This document shows, one piece after another, positions 4,240 to 62,585 of a stretch of 64,000 nucleotides of DNA. The stretch's first letter is position 1. Each line of letters starts with the position of its first letter. Position numbers and translations under genes: made by a program. The notes beneath the pieces were generated by a model. It searched no databases and had not been told where the DNA came from. It was given only the letters and a program-made list of their open reading frames with translations. The DNA comes from Fluviicola sp. (GTDB lineage Bacteria; Bacteroidota; Bacteroidia; Flavobacteriales_D; Crocinitomicaceae): assembly GCA_020849495.1 (NCBI GenBank), contig JADLGD010000029.1, positions 58,439-122,438 of the forward strand, in the 5' to 3' direction.

Positions 4240-5076
4240 TTAACGTTTAAACCATTTCACTTTCTTGCTTTTGCCGGTTTGATTAATCAATTCAAGCAAG
4301 TAAACACCAGCGTCTAATTGATCAACGCCTAACTGATTTCCTTCTAATTGACCTGATGAAACAACTGCTCCGTGAATGTTTATCACTTTGTAAGATAATT
4401 GTTCTGAAAGTTCATTTTGAATGAAAAGATGATCTTCTGCTGGATTTGGATACACATTCACATCAAGTAGTTGATTTTCCGAAAGTGCCGCTGAAAAATT
4501 GTTCTTGTAAAAGAAGAAGAACCATTTAGCTGGTCCTGGATCAAACATCCCTACTGTTGGAGCATAGAGGTAGCATAACACATCGTAGTCATTTGCAGCA
4601 ATGAGTTGAACAATTTGCAAACTACTTGCTGTTTCCCAAGCCAAATCGGTTTGTGAATTACTCGCCATCGGTGCACCATTTATATCAAGACAAGACATAA
4701 AAGATGGAACAGCTAAGCTAGTTGGTAAAGCATCAAAAGGTGGAGCTGTATTGGAACTTAATTGTGGATGTGATTGCTGACCTAGTCCCATCCAAACAAT
4801 GGTACCGCTAAAAAACACTTCCGTTGAAGGATTCAGATACAGCGACATTGAACCGAAATCGCCAGGCACAACATAGTTTGTTCCAAATGGCAAAGAATCA
4901 AGTGTACAATCTTCACAGTCGTAATAATTCAATGAAGCGCCAGAAAAGGAATAATCTTCGTAATCGACTGCAACAGTGAGCAAATTGATTTTATTGGGAA
5001 GAAATAGGGTGTCAAATTGTGCCGTTCCAAAAATTGGAACAAAAAAAGCAAGGATTTGGATATAAATCAATCGCAT
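4240..5076 (-). CDS. T9SS type A CTD protein, unknown N-terminal domain
   Basis: Signal peptide; C-terminal VYPNPAEDHL...LDAGVYLLEL...KVKWFKR. Confidence 0.8.
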   Translation of the reverse strand: MRLIYIQILAFFVPIFGTAQFDTLFLPNKINLLTVAVDYEDYSFSGASLNYYDCEDCTLDSLPFGTNYVVPGDFGSMSLYLNPSTEVFFSGTIVWMGLGQQSHPQLSSNTAPPFDALPTSLAVPSFMSCLDINGAPMASNSQTDLAWETASSLQIVQLIAANDYDVLCYLYAPTVGMFDPGPAKWFFFFYKNNFSAALSENQLLDVNVYPNPAEDHLFIQNELSEQLSYKVINIHGAVVSSGQLEGNQLGVDQLDAGVYLLELINQTGKSKKVKWFKR

Positions 5077-7735: not shown

Positions 7736-8233
7736 TTAACCTTTACTTTTGTTAAAGACGAATTTGCTGATGCTTTTGAATTCTTCTTTTTCTTTCGAAG
7801 TTGCAATTTGTTGTCTTAGTGACTCAGTAGATGTAACGCCATCTACTCCTCCATCCAATAAAGAAATATCTCCTACAATTAATTGATTCCCATCAAATTC
7901 AAACTGATACAAATAGTATTTATCTTCATTTGAAGGCTTTAAATACATAACATTTAATCCATTGATATTGGTTTGATACATCAGCAAATCATCTGTTTCA
8001 AGAGCATACATTTCTCCACGTTCAATCACATTCACTGCATAAGCAAACTTACTTTGCTTTTTAAACGAAACTGAAAGCACTTCATGATCCGGAGTACTTG
8101 AATCCAAGGTCCAAATCCCTTCTAATCGGGGATCTACTGCCTCAGTACCAATGTTACCAGGTGTGTAATCCAGTCCAACAGGGCAAGCAGTTAATAGCAA
8201 TACGAATGGAAGAAAATAGATCAGCTTTTTCAT
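7736..8233 (-). CDS. Hypothetical lipoprotein
   Basis: Lipobox LLTA-C; 165 aa, beta-rich. Confidence 0.7.
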   Translation of the reverse strand: MKKLIYFLPFVLLLTACPVGLDYTPGNIGTEAVDPRLEGIWTLDSSTPDHEVLSVSFKKQSKFAYAVNVIERGEMYALETDDLLMYQTNINGLNVMYLKPSNEDKYYLYQFEFDGNQLIVGDISLLDGGVDGVTSTESLRQQIATSKEKEEFKSISKFVFNKSKG

Positions 8234-8331: not shown

Positions 8332-8339
8332 TACTTTTG
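8332..8339 (+). promoter_or_regulatory. -7 element (TACTTTTG) for the helicase-KTSC operon
   Basis: TAnnTTTG match 18 nt upstream of the ATG at 8358. Confidence 0.65.
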
Positions 8340-8357
8340 CAGCTTTATAATTCGAAT

Positions 8358-9518
8358 ATGGTGTTTTCCTCACTTCAATTACATCCTTCTCTTCTTCCTG
8401 TTTTAAACGAATTAAAATTCGAGCAAGCGACTCCTATTCAGGAACTAGCTATACCAGCGATTTTGAATGGAAAAGATGTGATGGGAATTGCACCAACTGG
8501 TTCTGGTAAAACGGCGAGTTATGCTTTGCCAATTTTAACTCAGCTAGCAAAACAACCTGTTTCGAAAACCCGCAACATTCCTGTTTTGATTTTGGTTCCA
8601 ACACGTGAATTAGCTATTCAGGTGGAAGAAGTGTTCAAACTCTTTGCTCCAGCTTTGCCAAATTCACCAAAAATCAAAGCGGTTTATGGTGGTGTTTCGA
8701 TCAATCCGCAAATGAAATCCATGATGGGCGTTTCGGTTTTGATTGCTACTCCAGGACGTTTGATTGAATTATTGGAGAAAAACGCCCTTCAATTGAGCAG
8801 TTTGAAAACCTTGTTGCTGGACGAAGCTGATAAATTATTGAATCAAGGGTTCCAGGAGGAAATGGATCAAATCCGATCTTATCTTCCTGCAAAACGACAA
8901 AATTGTTTGTTCTCTGCCACATTGAACGAGAAAGTAGAAGCCATTACTTCATTGTTATTGCACGATCCGCTGGTGTTAAAAGTGGAGCAAACAGAAAACA
9001 GTGTAGAACAAATCAAACAAACGGCTTTTTGGGTGAATGAAGACCGAAAAGGACCTTTGCTGCGCTATTTAATAAAAAGCAGAAACATGCACCAAGTGTT
9101 GGTGTTTGTGGGATCAACTTTCAAAGCTGATGCAGTTGTAGAAAAATTGCGCAACAATAAATTGGACGCAGTGGCTATTCACAGTAAGAAAAGTCAGGAT
9201 GCGCGAACAAAATCATTGCGCAATTTCAAAGAAGGGAAAACACGCATTTTAGTTGCAACCGATTTGATTTCACGAGGGATTGATATTGAATTTTTGCCCT
9301 ATGTCATCAACTACGAATTGCCACGATCGCCAAAAGATTACATTCACCGAATAGGTCGAACGGGAAGAGCAGAAGCAACGGGTGAAGCCATTACTTTTGT
9401 GATGCCTGAAGATGAGCACCATTGGAAAATCATTCAAAAGAAAACAAAAAAAGAACAGGAACATCCTGCACATATTGAACATATTTCAACAGAAGATTTC
9501 GACTTGAAAGGATATTAA
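8358..9518 (+). CDS. DEAD-box RNA helicase (RhlE-like)
   Basis: Q motif ATPIQ, APTGSGKT, PTRELA, TPGRL, DEAD, SAT, HRIGRTGRA. Start moved from the TTG at 8337 to the ATG at 8358. Confidence 0.95.
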   Translation: MVFSSLQLHPSLLPVLNELKFEQATPIQELAIPAILNGKDVMGIAPTGSGKTASYALPILTQLAKQPVSKTRNIPVLILVPTRELAIQVEEVFKLFAPALPNSPKIKAVYGGVSINPQMKSMMGVSVLIATPGRLIELLEKNALQLSSLKTLLLDEADKLLNQGFQEEMDQIRSYLPAKRQNCLFSATLNEKVEAITSLLLHDPLVLKVEQTENSVEQIKQTAFWVNEDRKGPLLRYLIKSRNMHQVLVFVGSTFKADAVVEKLRNNKLDAVAIHSKKSQDARTKSLRNFKEGKTRILVATDLISRGIDIEFLPYVINYELPRSPKDYIHRIGRTGRAEATGEAITFVMPEDEHHWKIIQKKTKKEQEHPAHIEHISTEDFDLKGY

Positions 9519-9529
9519 ACATAAAATAG

Positions 9530-9979
9530 ATGAAACGCATTGCACAATACAAAAAACTCTTTCAAGTAGAATCAACTATTGAATTAGCAGATTTAAAAAA
9601 GACCTACCGCAAGTTGGTTAAAGAATGGCACCCGGATAAATTTCAAGAAAATGATCCTTTGAAAGCGGAAGCAGAACAAAAAAGCACCGAAATCATTGAT
9701 GCGTATCATTTCTTGGTGAGCATTGCTCCTGAAACATTGGAACAAAACTTACCCGCATATACCGAAATGATTACCAGCTCGATCGTTTCAGATTTTCAAT
9801 ACAAAGGCTTGACTTTGAAAGTAACTTTCCACAACGGTGATGTTTACGAGTACTTTGGTGTTCAAGCCAACAACTACAAGAAATTTGCCTCTGCTCCGTC
9901 GCCAGAACGCTATGGAAGAAGACATATTTTCACTTCACACGTTTACAGACAAGCAGCAAAGAGCACGGTGGAGGCTTAA
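9530..9979 (+). CDS. J-domain (DnaJ) + KTSC domain fusion protein
   Basis: N-terminal LKKTYRKLVKEWHPDKF (HPD motif); C-terminal TLKVTFHNGDVYEYFGV...YKKFASAPSPERY KTSC pattern. Confidence 0.85.
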   Translation: MKRIAQYKKLFQVESTIELADLKKTYRKLVKEWHPDKFQENDPLKAEAEQKSTEIIDAYHFLVSIAPETLEQNLPAYTEMITSSIVSDFQYKGLTLKVTFHNGDVYEYFGVQANNYKKFASAPSPERYGRRHIFTSHVYRQAAKSTVEA

Positions 9980-10008
9980 AGAAAAAGCCGCATTAAAAGT
10001 TCAAATTG

Positions 10009-10030
10009 AGGGGCGTTTAGCCCCTTTTTT
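10009..10030 (+). terminator. Intrinsic terminator after the KTSC gene
   Basis: AGGGGC-gttta-GCCCCT followed by a T run. Confidence 0.75.
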
Positions 10031-10105
10031 GTTTTGAAGAAGTCATTTCCTTCCTTTCCGCAGGAGAAAAGTGATAAAACAACTATTAAGTACAGTAAAT
10101 TTTTC

Positions 10106-10735
10106 TTAATAGTTAAACTCATAAAACCTTTGTTCATTAGGACTTAAAAAGATGGTGTCGGAGAAATTATTTGTAATTCCATTTTTTGTTACTTCCCAAG
10201 TAAAAAACCAATAACCCATTGGCACTTGAACAAAATTTGGCATGGTATAATCTTGACATCCATTGTAAATAGCAGGATTATTAAAACCCGTATAACCAGA
10301 CAAATTTGAAACTCTTGTTACTTCAATATGATCATTTGCATCAATGCAATTAACGTTGTTATACCTAAATTTCAAATAAGCACACTCCGCAAACTCAAAG
10401 TTAAAATGTCCATTTTCATCAAAAGGGCTATCGAAAAACATGTTGATTTGTTTATTGTAACAGGTGTTTGCTGGTTCAACCACCCGAACCGCGTACCTCC
10501 TGTTCCGCTTTTCATGCAATTCTACCACTGCTTCTCCATTTGCATTCAAAACACCAGAAGCAACCGTTTTTGTGCCTTCTCCATTCACAGCTCCCACTCT
10601 AGAAGAAACCACACTATATTCCAAACCCGGATATCGCTCACCGGTGATCGCATTAGTGGCAGTTATGACAATGGTGCGTTCTTTTCCACAGGAGGATAAC
10701 AAACAAGCAACTAAAAGAAAGAGAAATGGTTTCAT
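10106..10735 (-). CDS. Lipoprotein, paralog 3 (divergent) of the tandem family; candidate immunity protein
   Basis: Lipobox LLSS-C; C-terminal domain shares N.NC..D, GC and EVT.NG..N.F.DT..L.P...Y with the two upstream paralogs. Confidence 0.75.
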   Translation of the reverse strand: MKPFLFLLVACLLSSCGKERTIVITATNAITGERYPGLEYSVVSSRVGAVNGEGTKTVASGVLNANGEAVVELHEKRNRRYAVRVVEPANTCYNKQINMFFDSPFDENGHFNFEFAECAYLKFRYNNVNCIDANDHIEVTRVSNLSGYTGFNNPAIYNGCQDYTMPNFVQVPMGYWFFTWEVTKNGITNNFSDTIFLSPNEQRFYEFNY

Positions 10736-10820
10736 AAGTAATCCTTTTTACAAATTTGAGCAATTATTACACTTCAATTGTTGCAATTTTCCGTACTTGT
10801 GATTTGGGAACCGTAGGGGT

Positions 10821-11540
10821 TTAGTAATTGATAAATAGATTGTTATTTACACCAGGAGCTACAAGAATTGTATCCATGTATTCGTTTAAAACACCATTGC
10901 GGGTTACTTGAATTTTATAAACATGCAGACCAGCATTTCCATTGTACTGATAATTATTAGAAAAACAACCAAAAGCATAAGGACTCCAATAATTATTAAT
11001 GAAATCGTAATAATAATCTTGTTCATTAATGTTACGCAATATTATACGCATACTATCAGAAGGACCTGTGCAATTGACATTTTCTATCTTGTAATTAATA
11101 TCCATTTTCGGTAACAATCGCAAATAAATTTCTTTCGGCTCATTGGCAAATACATCAATAAACTGAGGCGTGTTGATAAGGGTATAATCTGAATACGGAC
11201 TTTGTACACCGCTATAATCAAAAAAGCATTGGTAATACCTGTTTTTGGTTTCTTTTCTGCGTTTGGTAAATGCGACTACTGCACGTCCGTTTGCCCCAGT
11301 TACACCTTGCATTTCAAAACCAGTGGGTTCACTTGGACCAAAAAGTTGATCTCCACCCGAACTGTATTCAACTACCTTAAATTTTACGCCTGGTATGGGC
11401 GTATGATCGTAAGGGATTTCACATTGCACCGCAACTTTAAATAAAAGCACATCGTTTTTCTTGCAACCTAGAAAGAAAAATAAACTAAGCGCAATACAAA
11501 ATGCGCCTAGTTTTGAATGATTACTATTTGGTGTTGCCAT
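10821..11540 (-). CDS. Lipoprotein, paralog 2; candidate immunity protein
   Basis: Lipobox FFLG-C; first ~140 aa nearly identical to 11552..12277, C-terminal ~95 aa divergent. Confidence 0.8.
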   Translation of the reverse strand: MATPNSNHSKLGAFCIALSLFFFLGCKKNDVLLFKVAVQCEIPYDHTPIPGVKFKVVEYSSGGDQLFGPSEPTGFEMQGVTGANGRAVVAFTKRRKETKNRYYQCFFDYSGVQSPYSDYTLINTPQFIDVFANEPKEIYLRLLPKMDINYKIENVNCTGPSDSMRIILRNINEQDYYYDFINNYWSPYAFGCFSNNYQYNGNAGLHVYKIQVTRNGVLNEYMDTILVAPGVNNNLFINY

Positions 11541-11549
11541 GAGTTGTTG
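11125..11549. repeat. Direct repeat copy A (~425 bp; partner 11862-12286, offset 737 bp)
   Basis: Manual alignment gives roughly 90-95% identity, with an identical run at 11431-11523 / 12168-12260. Confidence 0.95.
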
Positions 11550-11551
11550 GT

Positions 11552-12277
11552 TTAATATTGGATAAACACCTCATTTTCTTGGTTTGGTAGTATTAAAAAA
11601 GTGTCTATAAAAGTATTTACTTGACCATTTCGAGTGACTTCGTATTGATAAACTTCATGACCACTAGTAATACTACTATTAGTATAATCGATTATCACAC
11701 CGCAACCTAAATGGTAGCTTCCCCAAGGAGATGTGTCGTCGAAGGAAGAGTTTGGGTTTGAATCATAATTATAAACTCTCCATCTTATTCTATCATTTTC
11801 GTCAAAGCACGTTTGATTTTCAACTTTAAAATGATAACTTGTTTTAGGCAATAACTTGAGGTAAATTTCCTTCGGATCATTGGCAAATACATCAATAAAC
11901 TGAGGCGTGTTGATAAGGGTGTAATCAGGGTAAGGGCTTTCTACGCTGCTGTAATCAAAAAAACATTGGTAATACCTATTTTTGGTATCTTTTCTGCGTT
12001 TGGTAAATGCGACTACTGCACGTCCGTTTGTTCCAGTTATACCCTGCATTTCAAAACCAGTGGGTTCACTTGGGCCAAAAAGTTGATCTCCACCCGAACT
12101 GTATTCTACAACTTTAAATTTTACGCCTGGTATGGGCGTATGATCGTAAGGTATTTCACATTGCACTGCAACTTTAAATAAAAGCACATCGTTTTTCTTG
12201 CAACCTAGAAAGAAAAATAAACTAAGCGCAATACAAAATGCGCCTAGTTTTGAATGATTAATGTTTGGTGTTGCCAT
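11552..12277 (-). CDS. Lipoprotein, paralog 1; candidate cognate immunity protein
   Basis: Lipobox FFLG-C; start overlaps the last 34 bp of the upstream T9SS hydrolase gene. Confidence 0.8.
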   Translation of the reverse strand: MATPNINHSKLGAFCIALSLFFFLGCKKNDVLLFKVAVQCEIPYDHTPIPGVKFKVVEYSSGGDQLFGPSEPTGFEMQGITGTNGRAVVAFTKRRKDTKNRYYQCFFDYSSVESPYPDYTLINTPQFIDVFANDPKEIYLKLLPKTSYHFKVENQTCFDENDRIRWRVYNYDSNPNSSFDDTSPWGSYHLGCGVIIDYTNSSITSGHEVYQYEVTRNGQVNTFIDTFLILPNQENEVFIQY

Positions 12278-12286
12278 GAGTTGTTG
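11862..12286. repeat. Direct repeat copy B (~425 bp)
   Basis: See copy A; includes the last 14 codons of the hydrolase gene and the 5' half of paralog 1. Confidence 0.95.
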
Positions 12287-15072
12287 AACTTTAAATAAAC
12301 AATATACATACCTGATGCCAATGAAGGTACGGATAAATTTGTGCTACCAGTCAATGTTGTACCAAAACAAACAATGCCGTTGGGCTGTACTAATTTTATT
12401 TCCGTAGATTCTGTGTAGTTTTCAGGCAACTGAATGTGGAAACTACCATTCGATGGGTTCGGAAAGATCCTCCATTGTGATTCAGCTGACTGATTCTGAA
12501 TTAGTATATTACGGCCAAAATCATTTTCAGTATCTTCTTCAGAATCGCCAGTTAGAACTGAGGTTTGCAAAGATTTTGGACAATTCTCTGATCCAATGAA
12601 CAAATGTACGTCAGTACCTGCTTTGAAGTGCACACCTGGCTTTAAATGAACAATAGTGCCCGCCATAACCTCCGAGATACTATTCGCTTCAAAACTTACA
12701 GGCAAAAAGTCTGTTTTTTGAGTAACATGTTCACCCATTGTAATGGAGTTTGAAGTTGTGAAATCTGCTCGGTAACTTGCACCTGCTGTAGTATATTCGC
12801 CCACCTTTCGGTTTTGTAAATACATGTGTTCACCTTCTGTTTCCAATACATGAAACGTTACCAAAACGGGTTGCATAGCTGACGGCACACCTACGTTATC
12901 GGTTGGGCTTTTTGCTAAACCAGTAAGGTGCTCGGTGTTTTGATCAAAGGTAAACAAGGCATCGAAGGGTGTAACAGTATAATGGTTAGATGGGTACCCC
13001 AAATGTGGATATCCGAAGAAGTTTGAAGAGTTGTTAGGATTATTTGTGCTTGCTGAAATCTCATTTTCAAACATGAGAAAATTTTTCTTAAAATCATAAT
13101 CCAATCTTCCGCCAGCAAACTGAGTTCCAATATTCCGCACATCGTGCGTAAAAACAGTTGGTGTAAACGAAAACTGTGAGCCTCTTCTTATGTTTGGTTC
13201 ACCTGGTGTTTCACCATCAAAAATCACCAAAGCCTGCTCAACGATAGGTTTTTCTCCAAATGGAAACAAACCTCCTGGAGCATTGTCTAACAAAAGCGGA
13301 TTAATAGTTGCTGCTGCATACCTTACCTGCCAAGGTTTAAATAATGGTTTTTGCTCATAATAAAAAACACGGTGTATGCCTGGTTTCAAAAAAGTAGCTT
13401 CCCAACGTTTAAAAGAATTATTCTGTTTAAGAAAAATATGCCCCATCTCTGAGGGATACGGATAGTGATCTACGCTACCAGAAACATATTCTGGAATGCT
13501 CGAACCATTCGAGATTGAGACATTGCGTTGAAAAGAAGGATAATCTTGTAAATGCGTGTTTTTTGAATGGTTATACGTGCTTTGTAGTGCTAAGTAGCTT
13601 GTTCTTAAGGGGTGCCAACCTTGGCTAGGATAAGACGGGGAGCCTGTTTGTGTATGAAAATAATAAAGCAATTCTTGGGCTAGAGGCACATTAAAAATAT
13701 AGTTAATTGCATATAACCTCAAATTCCAAGCATCATATTCATAATCCATCATATAATCGATGGTATGCTGCAAGCCCAGTGGCACATTTGCTCCTAGGTT
13801 TTCTCCATCGTTAGAAATAAATAATCGTGTGTGTGGATGTTTACCATTATTTTCCAAATAGCGTTTTTCCATTTTAAGAAGCGCCAACCGTGCACACAAA
13901 GCACCAGCACTATAACCCGTAACGATATTTTCTTCATAGTAACCATCAGAATTTTTCCTTGTATTCACGGCATTAATCACCTTAATAGCAACTTCTGTAT
14001 TTAGATCAATGGATGCATTTGGTGGATTTATTTGTGCAAAAACAATGTCAAACCCCTTTTCTCTCAATTCACCAAAAACATTAGTTACGTTGAACTGATT
14101 CAAAAGCGTAAAATAATCTGTAGGCCATCCTTGGTTATTATTTATCAGTCCTTTATCAGTGTGAGGACCAAAACCTGTAAAAACTATGTATGGTTTTCTT
14201 AATTTTTTATCAGCACATGCATAGAAAATACGGTATTGTATTTTAGGGTTATTTAACCCTGAACTAGCACCCACAGTTAGTCTTTCTTCATATTGCTCAC
14301 TGTATGTACCTAGGTTAAAGGCACTTTTCGGTCGAGGCGTAATATATAGATTTTGTTGCGTTTCAAATAAAGTACCATCATCAAATTGAACAGAAAAATC
14401 AAATGATGTATTTCCATTCAATACGTTTGACAAATCGATAGTTGAACCTGGCAACAGGGTAAATGTAGTTCCACCAACCGTAACGTTAATCATTGAAATC
14501 GATCGCGTTTGATTAGAAAATATATTTTCTAACGGAAAAGTAAGTCGCAATAAATTAGTAGGAACTGTATCTTCCAAAAAGCCAATATAACGAATGTCTC
14601 GTTGAAACAAATCAGATTGTTGTAATGGAGGAAAGGCATCTTGTGTTGTTCCTTGAGAATACACATTCCACAAAGAGGGTAATACACTATTTACCCTTAC
14701 ATCTGCGAATACTAAAGGGTAATCAACAAGTTCTTCCCCATCAAAATTAAAACGTGCCTCCATATAGGAATCAAGAATAGAATCACGATGAATGGTGTTA
14801 GACATATCCCACCAATCTAATAGTGTGAGTACCTGCATCGATTTCTTGCTGCTCGCATTTGCCTGCCAAACAGGTGATGACATAGAAGCAATGATAGAAT
14901 CATTCAAAAGCAATGTTCGATTAGTTAGAAAAGTAGAGTTCCAAGTTTGCCAATTAGAAGCAGAAAAAGCGTAATTCGCTAGTTGTCTGGGATTCTCAAA
15001 AACCAAAGTATCATTCTGTCCCCATGCTTGCACTCCCACAAGCATGAAGAAAAAAAACAATAAGTGCTTCAT
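12244..15072 (-). CDS. T9SS-secreted alpha/beta-hydrolase (PGAP1/DUF676-like lipase fold) with type A CTD
   Basis: Signal peptide MKHLLFFFFMLVGVQAWG; KPYIVFTGFGP; nucleophile elbow GYSAG (13903-13917); TRLFISNDGENLGANVPLGLQ; IVHLKPGVHFKAG repeat-type domain; IFPNPSNG CTD. Start moved from 15105. Confidence 0.8.
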   Translation of the reverse strand: MKHLLFFFFMLVGVQAWGQNDTLVFENPRQLANYAFSASNWQTWNSTFLTNRTLLLNDSIIASMSSPVWQANASSKKSMQVLTLLDWWDMSNTIHRDSILDSYMEARFNFDGEELVDYPLVFADVRVNSVLPSLWNVYSQGTTQDAFPPLQQSDLFQRDIRYIGFLEDTVPTNLLRLTFPLENIFSNQTRSISMINVTVGGTTFTLLPGSTIDLSNVLNGNTSFDFSVQFDDGTLFETQQNLYITPRPKSAFNLGTYSEQYEERLTVGASSGLNNPKIQYRIFYACADKKLRKPYIVFTGFGPHTDKGLINNNQGWPTDYFTLLNQFNVTNVFGELREKGFDIVFAQINPPNASIDLNTEVAIKVINAVNTRKNSDGYYEENIVTGYSAGALCARLALLKMEKRYLENNGKHPHTRLFISNDGENLGANVPLGLQHTIDYMMDYEYDAWNLRLYAINYIFNVPLAQELLYYFHTQTGSPSYPSQGWHPLRTSYLALQSTYNHSKNTHLQDYPSFQRNVSISNGSSIPEYVSGSVDHYPYPSEMGHIFLKQNNSFKRWEATFLKPGIHRVFYYEQKPLFKPWQVRYAAATINPLLLDNAPGGLFPFGEKPIVEQALVIFDGETPGEPNIRRGSQFSFTPTVFTHDVRNIGTQFAGGRLDYDFKKNFLMFENEISASTNNPNNSSNFFGYPHLGYPSNHYTVTPFDALFTFDQNTEHLTGLAKSPTDNVGVPSAMQPVLVTFHVLETEGEHMYLQNRKVGEYTTAGASYRADFTTSNSITMGEHVTQKTDFLPVSFEANSISEVMAGTIVHLKPGVHFKAGTDVHLFIGSENCPKSLQTSVLTGDSEEDTENDFGRNILIQNQSAESQWRIFPNPSNGSFHIQLPENYTESTEIKLVQPNGIVCFGTTLTGSTNLSVPSLASGMYIVYLKFNNSWQHQTLIIQN

Positions 15073-15076
15073 GACC

Positions 15077-16054
15077 CTACTGTTTTTGTTGTTGAATTGC
15101 GTCAATAATAGCTTGTTGTTTTTGCAATAATTCTTGTTGCGTTTTCAGCTGTTCTTGCAAATCAATCAGATACAGTGTCAATTCCTCTACTTTTTCCATT
15201 AAAAGTACATTCGTTTCAGCTACATTGATACCTTGTTCTTGCATTTCTGAAGCACTCGGAACATTTGGTAAATGGTTGTTTGTAGCAATAAAGGATTTTA
15301 CTTCATTCAATGGCATTAAAGGATAGTTTTTCTCAAAAACATAATCAGGCCACGCTTGATCTAGATTTACTTTTATCTCTCTAGCATAGAGCAAACCATC
15401 CGAGTTTAGTTGCAAAAGTTTGTTCCCTGTATGGTCTTCAACTAAAATGGGTTTGGTTTGAAATGTATTGGAGGTTTTTATATGCAGTTTTGCAGTTGGC
15501 ACAACTCCGATACCCACTTTTACATCGGGCAAACAATTATTGTTCAAAACAAACATTGTTTGTTGTCCCGCTTGCCAAAAAGGAGATGAATAAACTAAAT
15601 TACCGTTTGCATCAGTTAAACAAGGGAGTTGTTGGGGCAAAGGTGGAAAGTTATAAATGAGACTTTTTAAATCTCCTCCATTTTTCACTTTTCCATTGGA
15701 ATTGATCATTAATACTCCATCACCAAATAATGTAGTATCGCCCAAAGGTTTGATTCTGAAATCTCCTTCTCTGATAACGACGTCGCCTTTTAAAATTGCT
15801 TTACCATCAACACGCAAATCGGTTTTAACCCGAGCTGTTTTGTTGAAAACTACCGAATCTCTTACAACCAAGGAAGAATCGATTCTTGCAGAACCATTTA
15901 CTTGTAATTTAGTGGTTGGTGAAATGGTTCCGATACCCACATTTCCATTATTGGGTAAGGTATTCGTTTGCCCAAAAGCAAACGAAAAAGTTGCTACTGA
16001 AACCAAGGCTATCCAAAGCTTTTTGGTGTTTTTTGATGTTAGATTGTGATTCAT
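15077..16054 (-). CDS. Secreted tail-fibre-like protein with a peptidase S74/chaperone-like C-terminal domain and coiled coil
   Basis: Signal peptide; GNVGIGTISPTTKLQVNG and KVGIGVVPTAKLHI repeats; WPDYVF...HLPNVPSASEM...LMEKVEELTLY followed by a Q-rich coiled coil. Confidence 0.75.
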   Translation of the reverse strand: MNHNLTSKNTKKLWIALVSVATFSFAFGQTNTLPNNGNVGIGTISPTTKLQVNGSARIDSSLVVRDSVVFNKTARVKTDLRVDGKAILKGDVVIREGDFRIKPLGDTTLFGDGVLMINSNGKVKNGGDLKSLIYNFPPLPQQLPCLTDANGNLVYSSPFWQAGQQTMFVLNNNCLPDVKVGIGVVPTAKLHIKTSNTFQTKPILVEDHTGNKLLQLNSDGLLYAREIKVNLDQAWPDYVFEKNYPLMPLNEVKSFIATNNHLPNVPSASEMQEQGINVAETNVLLMEKVEELTLYLIDLQEQLKTQQELLQKQQAIIDAIQQQKQ

Positions 16055-16199
16055 AAGTGTAAGTTTAGAACCTCAATCTACTAAGAATGATTGAACTATA
16101 CAAAACTTCGCTTGTTTTTTAACAAATGAATCCGAGCTACGAAAGATTCCTCAAACTAGATTATTTGAACAAGAACATCAAGATGGATTGAGCCTCCGT

Positions 16200-17267
16200 T
16201 TATTTTCTCTGCTCCGGAAATAAGCTCAACAAACCTTCTTCAGATGCAGCGCAGACACCTCTTTCGGTAATGAGTGCTGTGACCAAACGTGCAGGTGTTA
16301 CATCAAAACCATAGTTACTTGCTTGTGTGGTTTCAGGACAAATCAACACTTCGTCTAGTTTTCCTGTTGCTTTACTTTTCCCAACTACCCAGCGTACTTC
16401 GTCTTGGTTGCGTTGTTCGATCGGAATTTCTTTCAAACCATCAGAAATGGTCCAATCCAAAGTAGTGGAAGGCAGTGCTACGTAAAACGGAATCTGATTA
16501 TCATGAGCAGCAAGTGCTTTCAAATAGGTTCCGATTTTGTTTGCAACATCACCAATTCGAGTAGTACGATCTGTTCCTACGATACACATGTCCACCATTC
16601 CGTGTTGCATCAAATGTCCGCCTTGGTTATCCACAATCAGTGTATGTGGCACATTGTGGCGAGTCAATTCGTAAGCTGTCAGATTTGCGCCTTGTAAACG
16701 AGGACGTGTTTCATCCACCCAAACATGTACTTTGATGCCTTTTTGAACCGCTTGATAAATCGGCGAAGAAATGGTTCCCCATTCGATGCAACCCAACATT
16801 CCAGCGTTGCAATGTGTGAGTATGTGAACAGTCTCCCCATTTTTTTGTTGGCTCAACGCTTCAATCAATGGCAAACCGTGAACACCAATCATGCGACAAG
16901 TTTCCACATCGTCTTCTACAATGTTTCCAGCTTCAGTCCATGCAGTTTCCACTAAATTCTCAGCATTATCCAAGGCACGTTGCATGCGATCGAGCGCCCA
17001 AAACAAATTCACCGCAGTTGGTCTAGAAGCACGCAAAGCCGCAAAAGCTTCTTCCATGTTTGCACCTTCTCTTGCCGCCAAGTAAACACCATAAGCTGCA
17101 GTTGCACCGATTAATGGCGCACCACGAACAACCATGTCTTTGATTGCGCGTTCTGCATCTTTGTAAGAAACTAATTTTTCAACGACCCACTCGTGTGGTA
17201 ATTTGCGTTGATCAATGACTTCTACATAGTTGTCTTCAGTGGTCCAAATGGTTCTAAATGCGCTCAT
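16200..17267 (-). CDS. mtnA: S-methyl-5-thioribose-1-phosphate isomerase
   Basis: MVVRGAPLIG, RPTAVNL, THCNAG, DETRPRLQG, DVANKIGTY, FDVTPARL. Confidence 0.93.
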   Translation of the reverse strand: MSAFRTIWTTEDNYVEVIDQRKLPHEWVVEKLVSYKDAERAIKDMVVRGAPLIGATAAYGVYLAAREGANMEEAFAALRASRPTAVNLFWALDRMQRALDNAENLVETAWTEAGNIVEDDVETCRMIGVHGLPLIEALSQQKNGETVHILTHCNAGMLGCIEWGTISSPIYQAVQKGIKVHVWVDETRPRLQGANLTAYELTRHNVPHTLIVDNQGGHLMQHGMVDMCIVGTDRTTRIGDVANKIGTYLKALAAHDNQIPFYVALPSTTLDWTISDGLKEIPIEQRNQDEVRWVVGKSKATGKLDEVLICPETTQASNYGFDVTPARLVTALITERGVCAASEEGLLSLFPEQRK

Positions 17268-17290
17268 GATGGAATATTATCGTAATGGAA

Positions 17291-17986
17291 TTAATGAAAT
17301 TGTATCTCGTTGAAATCAGCAGCGGTATTTTTCCAATCTGCTGTTGTACCTGGTCTTACTAATTGAATAGTTTGATAACCTGCAGTGTTTGCCGCTTCCA
17401 ATTCTTCTTTGATATCGGATAAAAACAAGATGTTCTCAGGAGAAACAGTCAACAACTCAGCGATCTTAGCATACGTAGTTGTGTCTCTTTTTCCTCCTGT
17501 TGTTGTATCGAAGTAATTGGAAAAAAGTGGCGTTAAATCACCCGCAATGGAATAACCAAAGATCAATTGCTGTGCAGCGATAGAGCCAGAAGAAAAAACG
17601 CCCAAACCGATTCCAGCAGCATGCCAATTTTGTAAAGCTGCAGCTACTTCGGGGTAAACATGTCCTTTCAATGTTCCGTCTTTGTAGCCTTTCTCCCACA
17701 AAACGCCTTGTACAGCTTTCAAAGGAGTGATTTTTCGATCTTCCACACTCCACTGGTGCAATTTACGGATGATTTCTTCGTCGGTTGAGATCGTTTCGTT
17801 ATCCACTTCCAAGGCCAAATGAATGGTTTCAATGAAAGCTTGTTCTACAACCGGATGGTGTTTCAGCAGCGTTAAATCGTGAATATTGTTTCTGAAATAA
17901 GGAAACAGTTCATCTGCAACAAACGAAATAGACGTTGTTGTTCCTTCAATATCCGTGAGGATAAATGCAGGTTGTTTTAAAATCAT
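17291..17986 (-). CDS. mtnC: Enolase-phosphatase E1 (acireductone synthase)
   Basis: DIEGTTTSISFV...LFPY, DRKITPLKAVQG, FSSGSIAAQ, FLSDIKEEL. Confidence 0.93.
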   Translation of the reverse strand: MILKQPAFILTDIEGTTTSISFVADELFPYFRNNIHDLTLLKHHPVVEQAFIETIHLALEVDNETISTDEEIIRKLHQWSVEDRKITPLKAVQGVLWEKGYKDGTLKGHVYPEVAAALQNWHAAGIGLGVFSSGSIAAQQLIFGYSIAGDLTPLFSNYFDTTTGGKRDTTTYAKIAELLTVSPENILFLSDIKEELEAANTAGYQTIQLVRPGTTADWKNTAADFNEIQFH

Positions 17987-17990
17987 GGGG

Positions 17991-17998
17991 CAAAAATA
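17991..17998 (-). promoter_or_regulatory. -7 element (TATTTTTG) for mtnC-mtnA
   Basis: TAnnTTTG ends 4 nt before the mtnC ATG. Confidence 0.65.
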
Positions 17999-18083
17999 GG
18001 GAAAATCGAACTTAGCAATTAAGTAATAGTATTAAATTCCTTTTTTGCTTCAAAAAGTGACACCTGAACAGGAAAGAATTCAA

Positions 18084-18809
18084 TCAATCAACTTCTTCTT
18101 GATAGGCAATTAGAGGAGGTGTTTGTGGTGGATATTTCACATCTAATACCGACCAAATGATGCTACAGCAAAATAGCCAAATCAAGCACAGATAACCAAA
18201 GTTATTGAAATCATTAAAAAAACCATCGATCATTACAGCCAATACTGAACCATAGAAATAGGTGTTGAATTTATATTTTGAATTTTTTGTAAATGGTAAA
18301 AAAATGTTCCAATCTTTTACTTTGTAGCTATTCAAACGTTTCAGTTCTTTTCGAAATACCAAGTATTCAAAACAGAGAATGAGTAATGAAATTAAAATCA
18401 CACTAGTCCATTGACCATCCCATTTTTCCATAAAGCTTTTGTAATCTTCAACTTTCAACACTTTATAAAAAAATGCTGCAATCATTGACCCAGATACAAT
18501 TGCAGAAATGGCAAGAGCAAAAGTGAACAGAAATATATTGAAAATAAAAACGAAAAATTGCCAAATCAGGACAAGAGGCTGGGCCAATTCAGAAGACACC
18601 AAATCTCCCTTTATAGCAGCATATAGTGAGTTTTTAAACGTCAATTCACACAATGACAAATAATAATTGAAGAACAGACTAAAAAAAGATACATTCATGA
18701 ATAGGATTGTTTGACCTATTTCCCAGGACCAAAAAAAATAACCTATTAATGTAATTAGTACCCAGATGCTATTGATTGCAAGTGAGGAGTAGTTTTTAAG
18801 CCTGCTCAT
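18084..18809 (-). CDS. Hypothetical multi-pass membrane protein
   Basis: 241 aa with about six hydrophobic segments; ATGA overlap with the mtnD stop; visibly AT-rich. Confidence 0.65.
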   Translation of the reverse strand: MSRLKNYSSLAINSIWVLITLIGYFFWSWEIGQTILFMNVSFFSLFFNYYLSLCELTFKNSLYAAIKGDLVSSELAQPLVLIWQFFVFIFNIFLFTFALAISAIVSGSMIAAFFYKVLKVEDYKSFMEKWDGQWTSVILISLLILCFEYLVFRKELKRLNSYKVKDWNIFLPFTKNSKYKFNTYFYGSVLAVMIDGFFNDFNNFGYLCLIWLFCCSIIWSVLDVKYPPQTPPLIAYQEEVD

Positions 18810-19345
18810 TTCTTCACTTGAAATTCTAAATAGTTTTGTTCAATCTTAGATTCCGTGTAAACTGGCACCCAACCACTCATATCAATAAAAATGCGGATGG
18901 CTTTCACAAAAGGATTCGTTTCTCCAGCATCAAACCAATGTTTGGTACCTGCTGGAACAGAAATCAAATCGCCTTTTTCACACAACAGATTAAAAACGGG
19001 TTCTCCGTCTAAATTGAACCAAAACAATCCTTGTCCATCAACAAAAAAGCGAATTTCATCTTCAGAGTGCGTGTGTTCTGATAAAAATTTTGCGCGAATG
19101 GCTTCGTAATTTTCAGTGAGGTGATTGATTGTAATCACATCCGCAGTTTGGTAGCCTCCCGCTTGCATGAATGGTTGCAAATCGGCTTCATACGCTTTCA
19201 AGATCTCATCTGGTGTTGCTGTGTCTTCGAATGAAACAGCAGCTTGCCATTGATCAAAGAATACGCCTCTTTCATTTAAAAAAGTGCGGATTGCTGCAAC
19301 ATCTTTAATGGTTAACTGTTTATCAGGAATTGAGAGAATTGCCAT
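18806..19345 (-). CDS. mtnD: Acireductone dioxygenase
   Basis: EHTHSEDEIRFFVDGQGLF and LISVPAGTKHWFD cupin metal ligands. Confidence 0.93.
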   Translation of the reverse strand: MAILSIPDKQLTIKDVAAIRTFLNERGVFFDQWQAAVSFEDTATPDEILKAYEADLQPFMQAGGYQTADVITINHLTENYEAIRAKFLSEHTHSEDEIRFFVDGQGLFWFNLDGEPVFNLLCEKGDLISVPAGTKHWFDAGETNPFVKAIRIFIDMSGWVPVYTESKIEQNYLEFQVKK

Positions 19346-32366: not shown

Positions 32367-34562
32367 CTATTTTAAAATCTTTTTAGTGGATGGTGTATTT
32401 CCAATCAATTTTAAAAAATAGACACCAGAAGGGAATTCTTTAAATGAAATACTTTCAGAATCACTATTCATTTCAGCGAGCACTCTTCCTGTACAATCCA
32501 CCACAACTGCACCTGGGAAAGCACTATTTTCATTCCAACGAATGGATAATTGATCGGTAACTGGATTAGGATAAACTTCCCAATTTAAATCAACTTGCGG
32601 CTCAACCAACCCTAAATCGGCGTTTCCTACTGTTGAAAAAATGGGGCGCATCATCATACTTCCTTCTAAAGAAGAATTGGACCAAGTTGAACCTCCGTTT
32701 AATGAATAAAATGTTTTGTCAGAATTGTCATTGTTTTTATCAAAACCAATATTCAAACGATCAGCATCAATCTGTCTCCAACCCACATAGAATTTTCCTG
32801 CTGGCAAAACAACTGCGGTATCTTCAAAATAGTAATCTGTAAAAACGCCTCTTTCACTTTCATAAATTGGTTGACGAGCATTGAAGAATTCATCTTGGTA
32901 CAAAACAGTACCTGGAACACCGCCATTGTCTGCCCAAACAGTAAGCATGAACAATTTATCACTCACATCATTAACGGAAGGCACGAAATGAATTTTTACT
33001 CCTAACAAGGTATCCGTTTCATAAGGATCAAATTGATAAGCAATTCTAGCTTGAACACCAGTCACACCATAAGCTGCTTCAGCCGAACCGTCATCGTAAG
33101 CATATTCATTTCCAAAATATTGCTGAACATAAGAAGTATCATTTCCAGTAAACGTTGGAAACTGAGCAGAAGCTGCTGCAATCACATCGAACGTTTTTTC
33201 TTCTACACTTGGCGTTGTACTAAAAACATATCCTGCAGAAAAATTGTGAAACGATTCGTAAACCGTTCGAGGAGCATAATTTGGAAAACCTCCAGACAAG
33301 GTTTGAGCCATTAAAGTGAAATTCCCTTCGTTTGTACCTGCTACGTCAACTGCTACACTTCCATTCAAGTTGTTTTCAGGGATATTGGAACCATTTCTTA
33401 CGATTACTCGAATACTATCCGTCATGTGAGTAGGATCATTTACCCAGTGATCCCAAGGAACTTGAGTATAGGTTTTTATCAAAGAACCAATAGGATAAAC
33501 AAATGCGTAATCTTTGAACAAGGTATCGTAATAAATACTTCCAGATCTTAAATGCACATAATCCAAATGGAATTCATCTAACATTCCGGATAGACCTCCG
33601 TAATTTTTAAAGCGAAATTTAAATCCGTTTGTTAAATAAGCTGCATTCGTAATGCGAATATGCCCTACTTTAAAATCTTGCACATTTGAACCATTCATGC
33701 TCCACACATGCTCCCAATCATCTTCACCCACATTGTAAAATTCCAAGACCAAAGAATCACTTACTTCTGGCTCATCTCCCAAACCTTCTGCTTGCGCTAA
33801 AAAACTGAAATAAATGGAATCATTTGGAGCAAAAGAAGACAAATCGATGGATTTTGATGTCAAAAAATCGGCATAACCCACAGTAGCAGAACCAAAATTA
33901 TAAGGATAACCCGTTTCATCCAATCCATCAAAAGTGACTACACCCAAAGACCATGGATCTTTGGCGTGTGTGAAATTACGATAAGCTTGTTGGTCTATCC
34001 AATATGCATCAGGGTTTGATAAAGATGCGGTAAATACTAATGCTGAATCCTGTGCGTACTCAGGAACAGCAATATAAATAGTGTCTGGATCATTTGGAAA
34101 ATCCAACGTATCATAGATAAAATAAGGAGGATAAACTGTAATTGTAGTATAAACAACAGGATAACTGGAGAAACTTCCTACTTTGATGGTTGTAGAAGGC
34201 AAATCTGTTTCAATCACTGCTCCATTTTGCACGGTTCTCAATTTGGTAATTGTTGCTGTATAAGCAGCTGAAGCAGGTAAAGGAACATCTGCAACATCTT
34301 TTAATCGATAGAACAATTCCTCTGTTACATTTGGATCTCCGGGGTTTGCATTGTGTGTTTGAAATTTATCGTGAGAAAACTCATCAAACAAAGGCAAACT
34401 TAGAGTATCATATAGATAAATGAATGAACTATCAATGTTACTCGTTGTCTTTAAAACCTGTTTTTTGTCTGCTCGTTTCTGAAATCGAATTGCCTCCAAA
34501 GATTCTTGTGACCAAACATTGGAACAACCGATGAATAACAACACTATGAAAAAATGCTTCAT
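32367..34562 (-). CDS. T9SS type A CTD protein, conserved uncharacterised
   Basis: Signal peptide from 34562; TFDGLDETGYPY, YAYDDGSAEAAYG; CTD VYPNPVTD...FPSGVYFLK. Confidence 0.8.
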   Translation of the reverse strand: MKHFFIVLLFIGCSNVWSQESLEAIRFQKRADKKQVLKTTSNIDSSFIYLYDTLSLPLFDEFSHDKFQTHNANPGDPNVTEELFYRLKDVADVPLPASAAYTATITKLRTVQNGAVIETDLPSTTIKVGSFSSYPVVYTTITVYPPYFIYDTLDFPNDPDTIYIAVPEYAQDSALVFTASLSNPDAYWIDQQAYRNFTHAKDPWSLGVVTFDGLDETGYPYNFGSATVGYADFLTSKSIDLSSFAPNDSIYFSFLAQAEGLGDEPEVSDSLVLEFYNVGEDDWEHVWSMNGSNVQDFKVGHIRITNAAYLTNGFKFRFKNYGGLSGMLDEFHLDYVHLRSGSIYYDTLFKDYAFVYPIGSLIKTYTQVPWDHWVNDPTHMTDSIRVIVRNGSNIPENNLNGSVAVDVAGTNEGNFTLMAQTLSGGFPNYAPRTVYESFHNFSAGYVFSTTPSVEEKTFDVIAAASAQFPTFTGNDTSYVQQYFGNEYAYDDGSAEAAYGVTGVQARIAYQFDPYETDTLLGVKIHFVPSVNDVSDKLFMLTVWADNGGVPGTVLYQDEFFNARQPIYESERGVFTDYYFEDTAVVLPAGKFYVGWRQIDADRLNIGFDKNNDNSDKTFYSLNGGSTWSNSSLEGSMMMRPIFSTVGNADLGLVEPQVDLNWEVYPNPVTDQLSIRWNENSAFPGAVVVDCTGRVLAEMNSDSESISFKEFPSGVYFLKLIGNTPSTKKILK

Positions 34563-34572
34563 GCTCTTGAAT

Positions 34573-55707: not shown

Positions 55708-55708
55708 G

Positions 55709-62462: not shown

Positions 62463-62585
62463 GAGGCAAAGATAATTATTCTAAAAATGGAGTCGTCGAT
62501 TTTAAAAGAAAACAATTGAGGGGTTAGCACCCTATTTTACTAAATCGATAGAGCATACTTTCGTAGAGTGCAAAAACATCGTGCT

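Follow-up and report, generated by a model that had tools for sequence, protein, structure and literature searches.

A Fluviicola operon for a fibre protein, a hydrolase with a type IX sorting domain and three lipoproteins: a possible inhibitor-protected esterase

In Pseudomonas and Burkholderia the gene of the secreted lipase LipA is followed by the gene of a membrane-anchored periplasmic partner, Lif, which binds the lipase one-to-one. In Tannerella forsythia the KLIKK peptidases, which are exported by type IX secretion (the T9SS), are each co-transcribed with a lipoprotein inhibitor (potempin) that protects the outer membrane of the producer (PMC9890683). Here we describe an operon of Fluviicola sp. 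in which the gene of a hydrolase with a T9SS sorting domain is preceded by a fibre gene and followed by three lipoprotein genes. The operon occupies positions 10106-16054 of the stretch that was analyzed, 64,000 nucleotides of contig JADLGD010000029.1 (assembly GCA_020849495.1), referred to below as the window; all coordinates given without a locus name are those of the window.

Two other groups of proteins are relevant to the comparison. Among the Tle lipases, which are injected by type VI secretion (the T6SS), Tle4/TplE is PGAP1-like; Tli1 and Tli3, lipoproteins of the outer membrane, bind Tle lipases, and pldB is followed by three immunity genes (PMC6099711, PMC9860674). The mosaic adhesive trimer (MAT) fibres of Bdellovibrio recognize the prey surface, and their capping-loop motif has been defined (PMC10769870). 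As to the T9SS itself, the polymorphic TANFOR proteins of Bacteroidetes were proposed, but not shown, to be T9SS-exported antibacterial toxins with downstream immunity genes in a hypothesis of 2020 (PMC7073777), and a review of 2024 mentions T9SS-linked killing only jointly with the T6SS in a predatory bacterium (PMC11205867). The first-pass annotation of the operon, made from the sequence alone, had read it as a candidate effector-immunity system on the Tle/Tli pattern. Its statement of the Tle/Tli background agrees with the literature; it lacked the KLIKK/potempin precedent and gave the fibre no role.

We propose that the operon encodes a T9SS esterase, lipoproteins that inhibit it for self-protection and a fibre that targets it. 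Taken as a whole this proposal is tentative, and we put its chances a little short of even; its parts differ in strength and are graded separately below.

Operon structure and conservation

Five open reading frames (ORFs) on the minus strand make up one operon, which encodes a three-part extracytoplasmic module:

15077-16054, minus strand: fibre gene, 325 aa (ORF list)
12244-15072, minus strand, from ATG: hydrolase gene, 942 aa (ORF list and homolog starts)
11552-12277, minus strand: lipoprotein 1 (lp1), 241 aa (ORF list)
10821-11540, minus strand: lipoprotein 2 (lp2), 239 aa (ORF list)
10106-10735, minus strand: lipoprotein 3 (lp3), 209 aa (ORF list)

Going from the fibre gene to lp3, successive genes are separated by 4 nt, overlap by 34 nt, and are then separated by 11 nt and by 85 nt. 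The first three of these junctions had been reported by the first-pass annotation, together with the five-gene minus-strand layout, and were found again; the fourth had gone unmentioned. The mechanical start of the hydrolase ORF is a TTG at 15105. Because 14 homologs begin at an equivalent MK.. (the equivalent start reads MKHLL), the start was set at the ATG (15072).

The arrangement was compared across genomes. Relatives of the lipoproteins were seldom recovered by a word-indexed protein search, even when a profile of 27 sequences was used, and synteny was therefore derived from genome loci. A genome scan gave 31 hydrolase loci, mostly in Crocinitomicaceae (Fluviicola, Lishizhenia and Brumimicrobium), with distant loci in Kordia and in unclassified Bacteroidota, and the cassette is intact and conserved at 24% to 95% identity. 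The fibre gene adjoins the hydrolase gene in every locus with upstream sequence, usually 2-11 nt upstream of it; in locus L030 it lies downstream instead. One to five lipoproteins of the family follow the hydrolase in 26 of the 29 loci with downstream sequence; the cassette of the cultivable Fluviicola chungangensis MAH-3 (L016) has five. The overlap between the start in the lp1 position and the hydrolase stop measures 31-38 nt in 25 loci, the window among them, and 1-4 nt in five more. Flanking genes vary from locus to locus. Chance co-location of the genes was ruled out by this conserved synteny.

The converse comparison gave a similar picture. At least five of seven distant lipoproteins with usable context keep the pair: P0039, P0044, P0045 and P0051 follow a fibre gene and a hydrolase homolog; P0038 belongs to L034, one of the hydrolase loci above. 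P0041 is solitary, as is P0050, a weak match that may not belong to the lipoprotein family. The family does not, then, occur mostly without the hydrolase, an outcome that the first-pass annotation had named as telling against its own interpretation.

Some of the loci are unusual in other respects. L010 (CP034120.1), L014 (CAXPPC010000009.1), L026 and L031 are labelled Glaciecola amylolytica, Henriciella pelagia or Chryseobacterium gleum, yet carry a Crocinitomicaceae-type cassette with a T9SS sorting domain; these species labels look wrong, or the bins contaminated. One metagenome-assembled genome of Crocinitomicaceae (JANNWW01; L004 and L012) has at least two hydrolase loci; behind the first cassette, at L004:4428-5097, come a second fragment of a hydrolase and one of a fibre. 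Because L004 and L012 share one such genome and L004 has these second fragments, we conclude that some genomes carry several cassettes.

In the window the operon lies between housekeeping genes, as had been annotated and as direct reading showed: methionine-salvage genes upstream (16200-19345) and a convergent pair encoding a J-domain protein and a DEAD-box helicase downstream (8337-9979). Its GC content is slightly lower than that of the flanks, and it has no island-like character. PADLOC gave no defence-system match, and a scan for sigma-70 promoters found 20 sites against 20.4 expected, Bacteroidota promoters differing from that consensus. Just past the helicase gene a separate lipoprotein of 165 aa is encoded (7736-8233, minus strand; lipobox LLTAC) that does not match the profile of the lp1-lp3 family. 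Occurrences of the region 9900-16300 are mostly in wastewater and activated-sludge metagenomes. Three short contigs from one wastewater metatranscriptome match the hydrolase gene, at 13096-13333, 13588-13747 and 14431-14605, which is weak evidence that the gene may be expressed.

Hydrolase and lipoproteins

The hydrolase carries signals for passage of both membranes, as the first-pass annotation had stated for a protein of about 940 aa. Its Sec signal peptide, MKHLLFFFFMLVGVQAWG, is followed by QNDT with cleavage between G and Q, and is kept in all 14 aligned homologs. The C-terminal domain (CTD) passes the cut-offs of both models of the T9SS type-A sorting domain: PF18962 with E=1.3e-8 and 35.4 bits (curated cut-off 27) and TIGR04183 with E=9.6e-9 and 35.1 bits (curated cut-off 23). 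The family profile of the hydrolase also matches solved CTD structures (8glk, E=3e-12). The signal peptide is followed by an alpha+beta domain in the N-terminal part (residues ~20-270); then come the alpha/beta-hydrolase core and a pre-CTD beta domain, and the T9SS sorting domain closes the protein. The following features were located:

12247-12468, minus strand: T9SS type-A sorting domain, residues 869-942, the C-terminal 74 (PF18962 and TIGR04183)
12913-14244, minus strand: alpha/beta-hydrolase core, residues ~277-720, with a poorly modelled insertion at 522-658 (BLASTP and Foldseek)
13903-13917, minus strand: nucleophile elbow GYSAG, residues 386-390, Ser388 (S388 and G390 invariant)

Eight further ORFs of the window have ends resembling T9SS type-A CTDs, in regions that include 4240-5076 (minus strand), 32367-34595 (minus), 38172-40067 (minus), 53423-58116 (plus) and 62568-63866 (plus). 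The region 53423-58116 holds four tandem CTD-bearing paralogs of ~380-406 aa. The presence of these ORFs suggests that the host may have an active T9SS.

A protein search returned 30 relatives of the hydrolase, 16 of them full-length or nearly so at 31-95% identity, with a tail of distant proteins besides; an exhaustive profile search at E<=1e-30 gave 971 clusters at 50% identity. The family is large, has no Pfam model and has no characterised member. Outside the CTD no Pfam, NCBIfam or PDB sequence match was obtained with the single sequence, the family profile or two distant homologs, and 1 of 15 family members reaches DUF676, at E=0.03 only. The connection to described enzymes runs through distant relatives. 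P0022 (33.9 bits) and P0026 (32.8 bits) exceed the DUF676 cut-off of 20.3, and P0025 (34.4 bits) and P0029 (32.0 bits) exceed the PGAP1 cut-off of 24.3. By BLASTP the window hydrolase matches P0022 at 8e-22 (residues 174-564) and P0026 at 1e-22 (residues 279-524). In these alignments GYSAG stands opposite GISMG and SNDGENLGANVPLGLQ opposite SMDSPHQGANVPLGLQ; homology to the proteins that pass DUF676/PGAP1 covers both the elbow and the SxDxxxGANVPLGLQ motif. Through these intermediate homologs the hydrolase can be assigned, on sequence grounds, to the DUF676/PGAP1-like branch of the alpha/beta hydrolases. The PGAP1/DUF676 assignment of the first-pass annotation therefore stands by way of intermediates only, and not by a direct Pfam score.

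The GYSAG elbow and the TPFD...NTEH segment that had been pointed out as catalytic candidates were located at residues 386-390 and 701-715. Across 35 homologs from genomes and metagenomes S388, G390 and D596 are invariant, position 422 is Asp or Glu in all, and H715 (of NTEH) is kept in 31. It is likely from this conservation that Ser388 is the nucleophile, Asp596 or Asp/Glu422 the acid and His715 the base. An AlphaFold (AF2) model built with 15 sequences reached a mean predicted local distance difference test score (pLDDT) of 63.5 and places a strand-elbow-helix at residues 382-408. Searched with Foldseek against PDB, the model matches lipases and esterases at E~1e-5 (2y6v, 6v7n, 1gz7); peroxisomal Lpx1, lysosomal acid lipase, Candida rugosa lipase and PETases are among the matches. 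Against BFVD, a viral library, Foldseek returned generic alpha/beta hydrolases and CTDs and nothing toxin-specific. Overall, we consider it very probable that the hydrolase is an active enzyme exported by the T9SS.

The three lipoproteins are related, as had been claimed. Their lipoboxes end in FLG/C (lp1), FLG/C (lp2) and LSS/C (lp3), the slash preceding the lipid Cys. Overall, lp1 and lp2 are 70% identical. lp3 matches lp1 at E=8e-10 and lp2 at E=4e-7 by BLASTP, and the family profile at E=2.8e-55; judged by these scores it is a true but distant paralog, of a type that occurs once in our sample. In the family alignment the lipid Cys is invariant, and two further Cys (C157 and C192) are conserved in the second domain. 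The lipoproteins have no Pfam or NCBIfam match; the N-domain resembles CarboxypepD_reg modules, PF13620 being reached in distant members. From their signals the lipoproteins are predicted to be exported and lipid-anchored in the envelope. In the phylum Bacteroidota acidic residues after the lipid Cys act as a surface-export signal. No acidic run is seen after the lipid Cys in the window lipoproteins, in agreement with the first-pass annotation. The AF2 model of lp1 (pLDDT 66) consists of two beta-sandwiches.

The similarity of lp1 and lp2 is distributed unevenly. Their N-domains are ~93% identical, and DNA similarity collapses sharply at the boundary between the N- and C-domains:

11861-12287, minus strand: homogenised tract in lp1, beginning 10 nt before the ATG and ending where the two domains join; over its 427 nt it shares 93% identity with the partner tract 11124-11550 in lp2

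The same holds within arrays of at least eight lineages, where N-domains are 85-100% identical and C-domains 30-50%. Between genomes the C-domains can be followed instead. That of lp1 belongs to type C14, always a first-position type, and is 51-55% identical to the first-position lipoproteins of other Fluviicola. That of lp2 belongs to type C13; its matches, at 62-63% identity, are the last array members in L009, L010 and L021. The N-domains of lp1 and lp2 are only 35-40% identical to those of the same cross-genome matches. By these comparisons the C-domain types predate the species carrying them. As the N-domains are homogenised within a genome and the C-domain types are old and maintained, we regard the C-domain as the specificity module.

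A second, unrelated lipoprotein family of ~220-230 aa, with the mature N-terminus C-TITKRHFGPGYHVEWKK, ends or interleaves several Fluviicola arrays (L005:11695-12351 and 12431-13105, L006:12423-13109, L009:13935-14627, L010:11704-12399 and 13211-13885, L021:13218-13901). It has no Pfam match and is missing from the window.

The fibre and its pairing with T9SS cargo

The fibre protein begins with a Sec signal peptide that ends ...SFAFG/Q. It is built of two GNVGIGT..P..KL capping-loop motifs, a beta-rich shaft, a conserved C-terminal domain and a coiled coil. The two motifs, GNVGIGTISPTTKLQV and VGIGVVPTAKLHI, fit V-G-(G/N)-x-x-x-P-x-x-x-L. A profile of 17 fibre homologs matches structures of Bdellovibrio MAT fibres, 8ond (Bd2133) at E=1.1e-7 and 8ol4 at E=2.3e-6, and MyRF at E=0.038 through the N-terminal capping-loop motif only; matches to tail-fibre PHROGs are weak.

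15080-15412, minus strand: fibre C-terminal domain, residues ~215-325 (WPDYVF..HLPNVPSA..LMEKVEELTLY and coiled coil), the most conserved part of the fibre

Invariant columns of this domain are W235, D237, Y238, V239, F240, H261, L262, P263, K288, E290, E291 and T293. It has no Pfam match and no sequence relative in PDB. Pfam S74 is not matched by the fibre at E<=1, the SDxxxK motif is absent (the stretch reads YAREIKV, without Ser), and no S74 chaperone-domain structure is present among the PDB profile matches. As the C-terminal domain is without the SDxxxK dyad and without relatives in Pfam or PDB, the 'S74-like' of the first-pass annotation is a resemblance only: the capping-loop part of the description is borne out by the profile (E=1e-7), the S74 part is not.

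The C-terminal domain is found in more than 536 metagenome stretches, a lower bound, and also in 32 viral-contig loci of IMG/VR, on proteins of 866-878 aa. At L138:3706-6342, L147:3616-6216 and L142:4846-6225 of that set it is carried by long proteins beside baseplate-wedge, tail-fibre and major-head PHROGs. On account of these neighbours we take it for a genuine phage tail-fibre module that is shared with cellular genes. A tblastn search with the domain against 50,697 phage records gave no match.

These findings raise the question whether the fibre and the enzyme are what is left of a prophage or tailocin, a tail-fibre/depolymerase pair with no cellular function. The domain does occur on proteins of phage tail-fibre size next to baseplate genes, and the N-terminal motif of the fibre matches tail-fibre PHROGs. 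Both proteins, however, have Sec signals and the enzyme a T9SS sorting domain, neither of which a virion protein needs. Phage genes are absent from the flanks of the cassette, both in the window and in ~30 loci, the cassette is intact over the whole range from 24% to 95% identity, and the phage records yielded nothing. On the export signals and the flanks we reject a remnant, and consider this origin scarcely credible.

The fibre gene is more widespread than the hydrolase gene, which is contained in only 2 of 112 fibre loci. In the metagenome loci a T9SS sorting domain is encoded by 17 of 39 genes just downstream of a fibre gene (44%) versus 19 of 202 other genes (9%), an odds ratio of 7.4 with p=1e-6, a statistic that rests on crude gene calls in sampled loci. 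Among these cargos are two trypsin-like proteases, an M23 peptidase, a GH16 enzyme and several unknowns; behind some of them lie arrays of small lipoproteins whose junctions are again -35 or -4. At L064:7134-12543 a fibre gene is followed by a gene for a 798-aa T9SS protein, a 35-nt stop overlap and seven alternating lipoproteins (135/138 aa). L054:7080-10267 is similar, a fibre followed by a 798-aa T9SS protein and a small-lipoprotein array; enzyme and lipoproteins are unlike those of the window.

A docking domain shared by the fibre-linked cargos was sought and not found: the parts common to the cargos compared are the pre-CTD beta domain and the CTD only. Loci L046, L057, L061, L074, L085 and L109 have tandem arrays of 5-9 fibre paralogs. 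In L046, L057 and L085 the array is followed by a protein of 1100-1400 aa with a ..NILK..Y.Y-type tail, in which Pfam recognizes an Rhs repeat in the case of L046.

The pairing of a fibre with T9SS cargo is more general and more deeply conserved than the link to the lipoproteins. In view of these wider fibre loci we place the window operon in a general layout, a fibre with T9SS cargo and, optionally, a lipoprotein array, of which it is the member of the esterase type. Neither the hydrolase family nor fibre-cargo coupling was found described in literature searches; within the literature searched, this coupling and the way in which the lipoproteins evolve domain by domain, the N-domain being homogenised and the C-domain types conserved, seem undescribed.

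A bolder generalization would be that Bacteroidota have widespread attack modules in which a phage-derived trimeric fibre targets an envelope-degrading T9SS enzyme to a competitor or prey cell and the downstream lipoprotein arrays, their anchoring domains homogenised and their binding domains diversified long ago, provide immunity. We think this rather improbable at present. The extension by which the cargos would range over esterase, M23 peptidoglycan peptidase, protease, glucanase or Rhs-type toxin, the window having the lipase-type member, is held with the same reserve.

Proposed function and relation to described systems

For the substrate of the enzyme, its binding and inhibition by the lipoproteins, the function of the fibre and the target, we infer the following scheme. 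Sec would take the hydrolase through the inner membrane, and the T9SS, by way of the type-A sorting domain, through the outer one; the enzyme would act as a serine esterase or lipase with Ser388 as nucleophile. The lipoproteins, two-domain beta-sandwiches lipid-anchored in the envelope, would bind it and hold it inactive against the membranes of the producer, whether during its passage of the periplasm, at the cell surface or in both places. lp1 would be the cognate partner, made in step with the enzyme by means of the 34-nt overlap; the variable C-domain would set specificity, lp2 and lp3 providing accessory specificities. The fibre would be a trimeric adhesin of the phage tail-fibre or Bdellovibrio MAT type and would deliver the enzyme or its host cell to a target surface. 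This would likely be the envelope of another cell, so that the module could serve as a device for attack or lytic foraging.

The steps of this scheme are not equally secure. Binding of the hydrolase by the lipoproteins we consider somewhat probable. That the lipoproteins are inhibitors or immunity proteins rather than helpers is finely balanced, with the scale tipped slightly to the other side, and that the purpose of the module is to harm other bacteria is doubtful.

Several observations weigh against the scheme. With regard to the enzyme, the window hydrolase shows nothing at E<=1 against PF05057 or PF07819 and reaches no Pfam hydrolase cut-off. No Tle4/TplE or toxin-specific match was found in PDB sequence searches or among the top 50 Foldseek matches of the model with pLDDT 63.5. 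In that model pLDDT is below 50 at residues 522-658 and 711-733, where the triad candidates D596 and H715 fall; as 522-658 is poorly modelled, the geometry of the triad is beyond its reach. No recognised T9SS signal is present in the fibre, despite its Sec signal. With regard to the lipoproteins, two Kordia loci (L029 and L032) and L030 have a fibre and a hydrolase and no family lipoprotein, and in L029 the plus strand has no ORF of at least 40 aa after the hydrolase; these loci speak against immunity as an obligate role. In ~30 loci the first, cognate position was never occupied by the accessory C-domain types C13 and C16. Foldseek matches of the lp1 model are generic two-Ig-domain pilins and adhesins with TM-scores of 0.2-0.3, and the model has no Foldseek likeness to immunity proteins or potempins. 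Finally, the enzyme could be purely nutritional.

The simple orphan-immunity model, which predicts that accessory C-domain types are cognate elsewhere, was discarded, none being seen as such in the sample. The effector-immunity interpretation of the first-pass annotation is partly supported: linkage, overlap and a copy number of 0-5 reproduce the layout of Tle/Tli, and the Kordia loci, the positions of C13 and C16 and the lp1 model do not fit it. The comparison with Tle4/TplE that it had proposed showed no specific similarity, Foldseek giving only generic alpha/beta hydrolases at E~1e-5.

The same lipoprotein data bear on the role of a helper. The lipoproteins could be periplasmic or outer-membrane escorts of the Lif kind, which fold the hydrolase, hand it to the T9SS or tether enzyme or fibre to the surface. 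The translational overlap and the strict co-occurrence fit this too. So do envelope anchoring, beta-sandwich domains suited to protein binding and an N-domain that resembles CarboxypepD_reg-type modules, and the Kordia homologs indicate that the enzyme family can exist without a lipoprotein. Steric foldases, on the other hand, normally come one per lipase, and arrays of 2-5 with anciently distinct C-domains would be unusual for a chaperone; there is no similarity to Lif. In the closest T9SS precedent, moreover, PotA is reported not to contribute to secretion or maturation (PMC9890683). We consider helpers unlikely.

Operons for type V pili typically contain lipoprotein genes that are paralogous and arranged in tandem. 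Such an arrangement, with the best Foldseek matches falling on two-domain pilins (P. gingivalis Mfa4 and Bacteroides FimA-like proteins among them), would suit a surface filament in which the lipoproteins are small pilin or adhesin subunits, the fibre the tip and the hydrolase a processing or remodelling enzyme. At the low TM-scores cited, on a model with pLDDT 66, we do not read the pilin matches as evidence of a pilus. The lipoproteins are about half the size of type V pilins and have no sequence match to pilin families, and no usher or anchor gene is present. A filament is accordingly very improbable.

More weight attaches to nutrition. In a nutritional surface complex the fibre would bind particles, algae or detritus, the esterase would free fatty acids or deacetylate polymers, and the lipoproteins would be binders of differing ligands in the manner of SusE/F. 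The wastewater and activated-sludge habitat agrees with this, as do the digestive enzymes that make up most known T9SS cargos, the GH16 and protease cargos of other fibre loci, the two beta-sandwich domains of which the distal one varies, and the Foldseek matches to Bacteroides 'cell adhesion' lipoproteins. Against it, no TonB-dependent transporter or SusC/D pair adjoins any of the loci, and the window lipoproteins lack the acidic run of surface export. Since the start-stop overlap is conserved, matched amounts of the two proteins are suggested rather than independent binders. We rate a complex of this kind as unlikely, on a par with the helpers.

The proposed inhibitor-protected, fibre-targeted esterase has consequences that differ with its purpose. 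If the attack-module reading is true, the T9SS would gain a direct role in interbacterial antagonism. The operon is a compact test of T9SS use against bacteria, with S388A as a catalytically dead control, three candidate inhibitors, of which one is cognate and two are accessory, and a fibre as the candidate for targeting. If the lipoproteins merely protect the producer from its own digestive enzyme, the potempin principle, known for peptidases of an oral pathogen, would come to include lipases and environmental Bacteroidota.

How the operon stands to the systems described at the outset can now be set out. The TANFOR proteins raise the same question, that of the T9SS in interbacterial competition (PMC7073777). 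They carry a TANFOR domain at the N-terminus and nuclease-type toxins at the C-terminus, the immunity proteins being cytoplasmic, and, unlike the module described here, have no CTD, lipase or fibre. The LipA/Lif pair has in common with it a secreted lipase gene followed by the gene of a membrane-anchored partner. Lif, however, is an alpha-helical steric chaperone anchored in the inner membrane, present in single copy and serving a lipase secreted by the type II secretion system, and it has no similarity to the lipoproteins of the window.

The MAT and S74 fibres share with the window fibre a signal peptide, a beta-rich region and repeated V-G-x-G-x-x-P-x-x-x-L capping loops. MAT fibres are ~1000 aa long, whereas the window fibre has 325 aa, comes from another phylum and is genetically coupled to a T9SS cargo. 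Its C-terminal domain is a distinct module, with neither the SDxxxK protease motif nor a Pfam S74 match, in contrast to S74 fibres.

Tle/Tli systems resemble the operon in a GxSxG alpha/beta-hydrolase and in immunity genes that lie directly downstream, often encode lipoproteins and are sometimes in tandem; the binding of a lipase in the periplasm is a property of Tli. Tle proteins are injected by the T6SS and have no Sec signal or CTD, whereas the hydrolase described here has both Sec and T9SS signals. No T6SS gene adjoins the operon in the window or the flanks of the listed loci, and the fibre gene is part of the module. The window hydrolase is not a Tle, as its delivery route differs and specific similarity is lacking.

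The KLIKK/potempin pairs are the closest T9SS precedent, and the only case we found in which a T9SS cargo and a cognate lipoprotein inhibitor have been characterised as a pair. A T9SS hydrolase and an adjacent gene for an envelope-anchored lipoprotein are common to both, the blocking of the enzyme being characterised there and proposed here (PMC9890683). The window lipoproteins have no sequence or fold similarity to potempins by Pfam/NCBIfam or Foldseek. Potempins are single beta-barrels of 98-132 aa (OB-fold or eight-stranded), whereas those of the window have two beta-sandwich domains in 209-241 aa. The potempin gene lies upstream of its enzyme and the lipoprotein genes here lie downstream; the KLIKK cargos are peptidases and the cargo here is an esterase. 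The KLIKK/potempin loci contain no tandem arrays and no fibre gene, while the operon described here has both.

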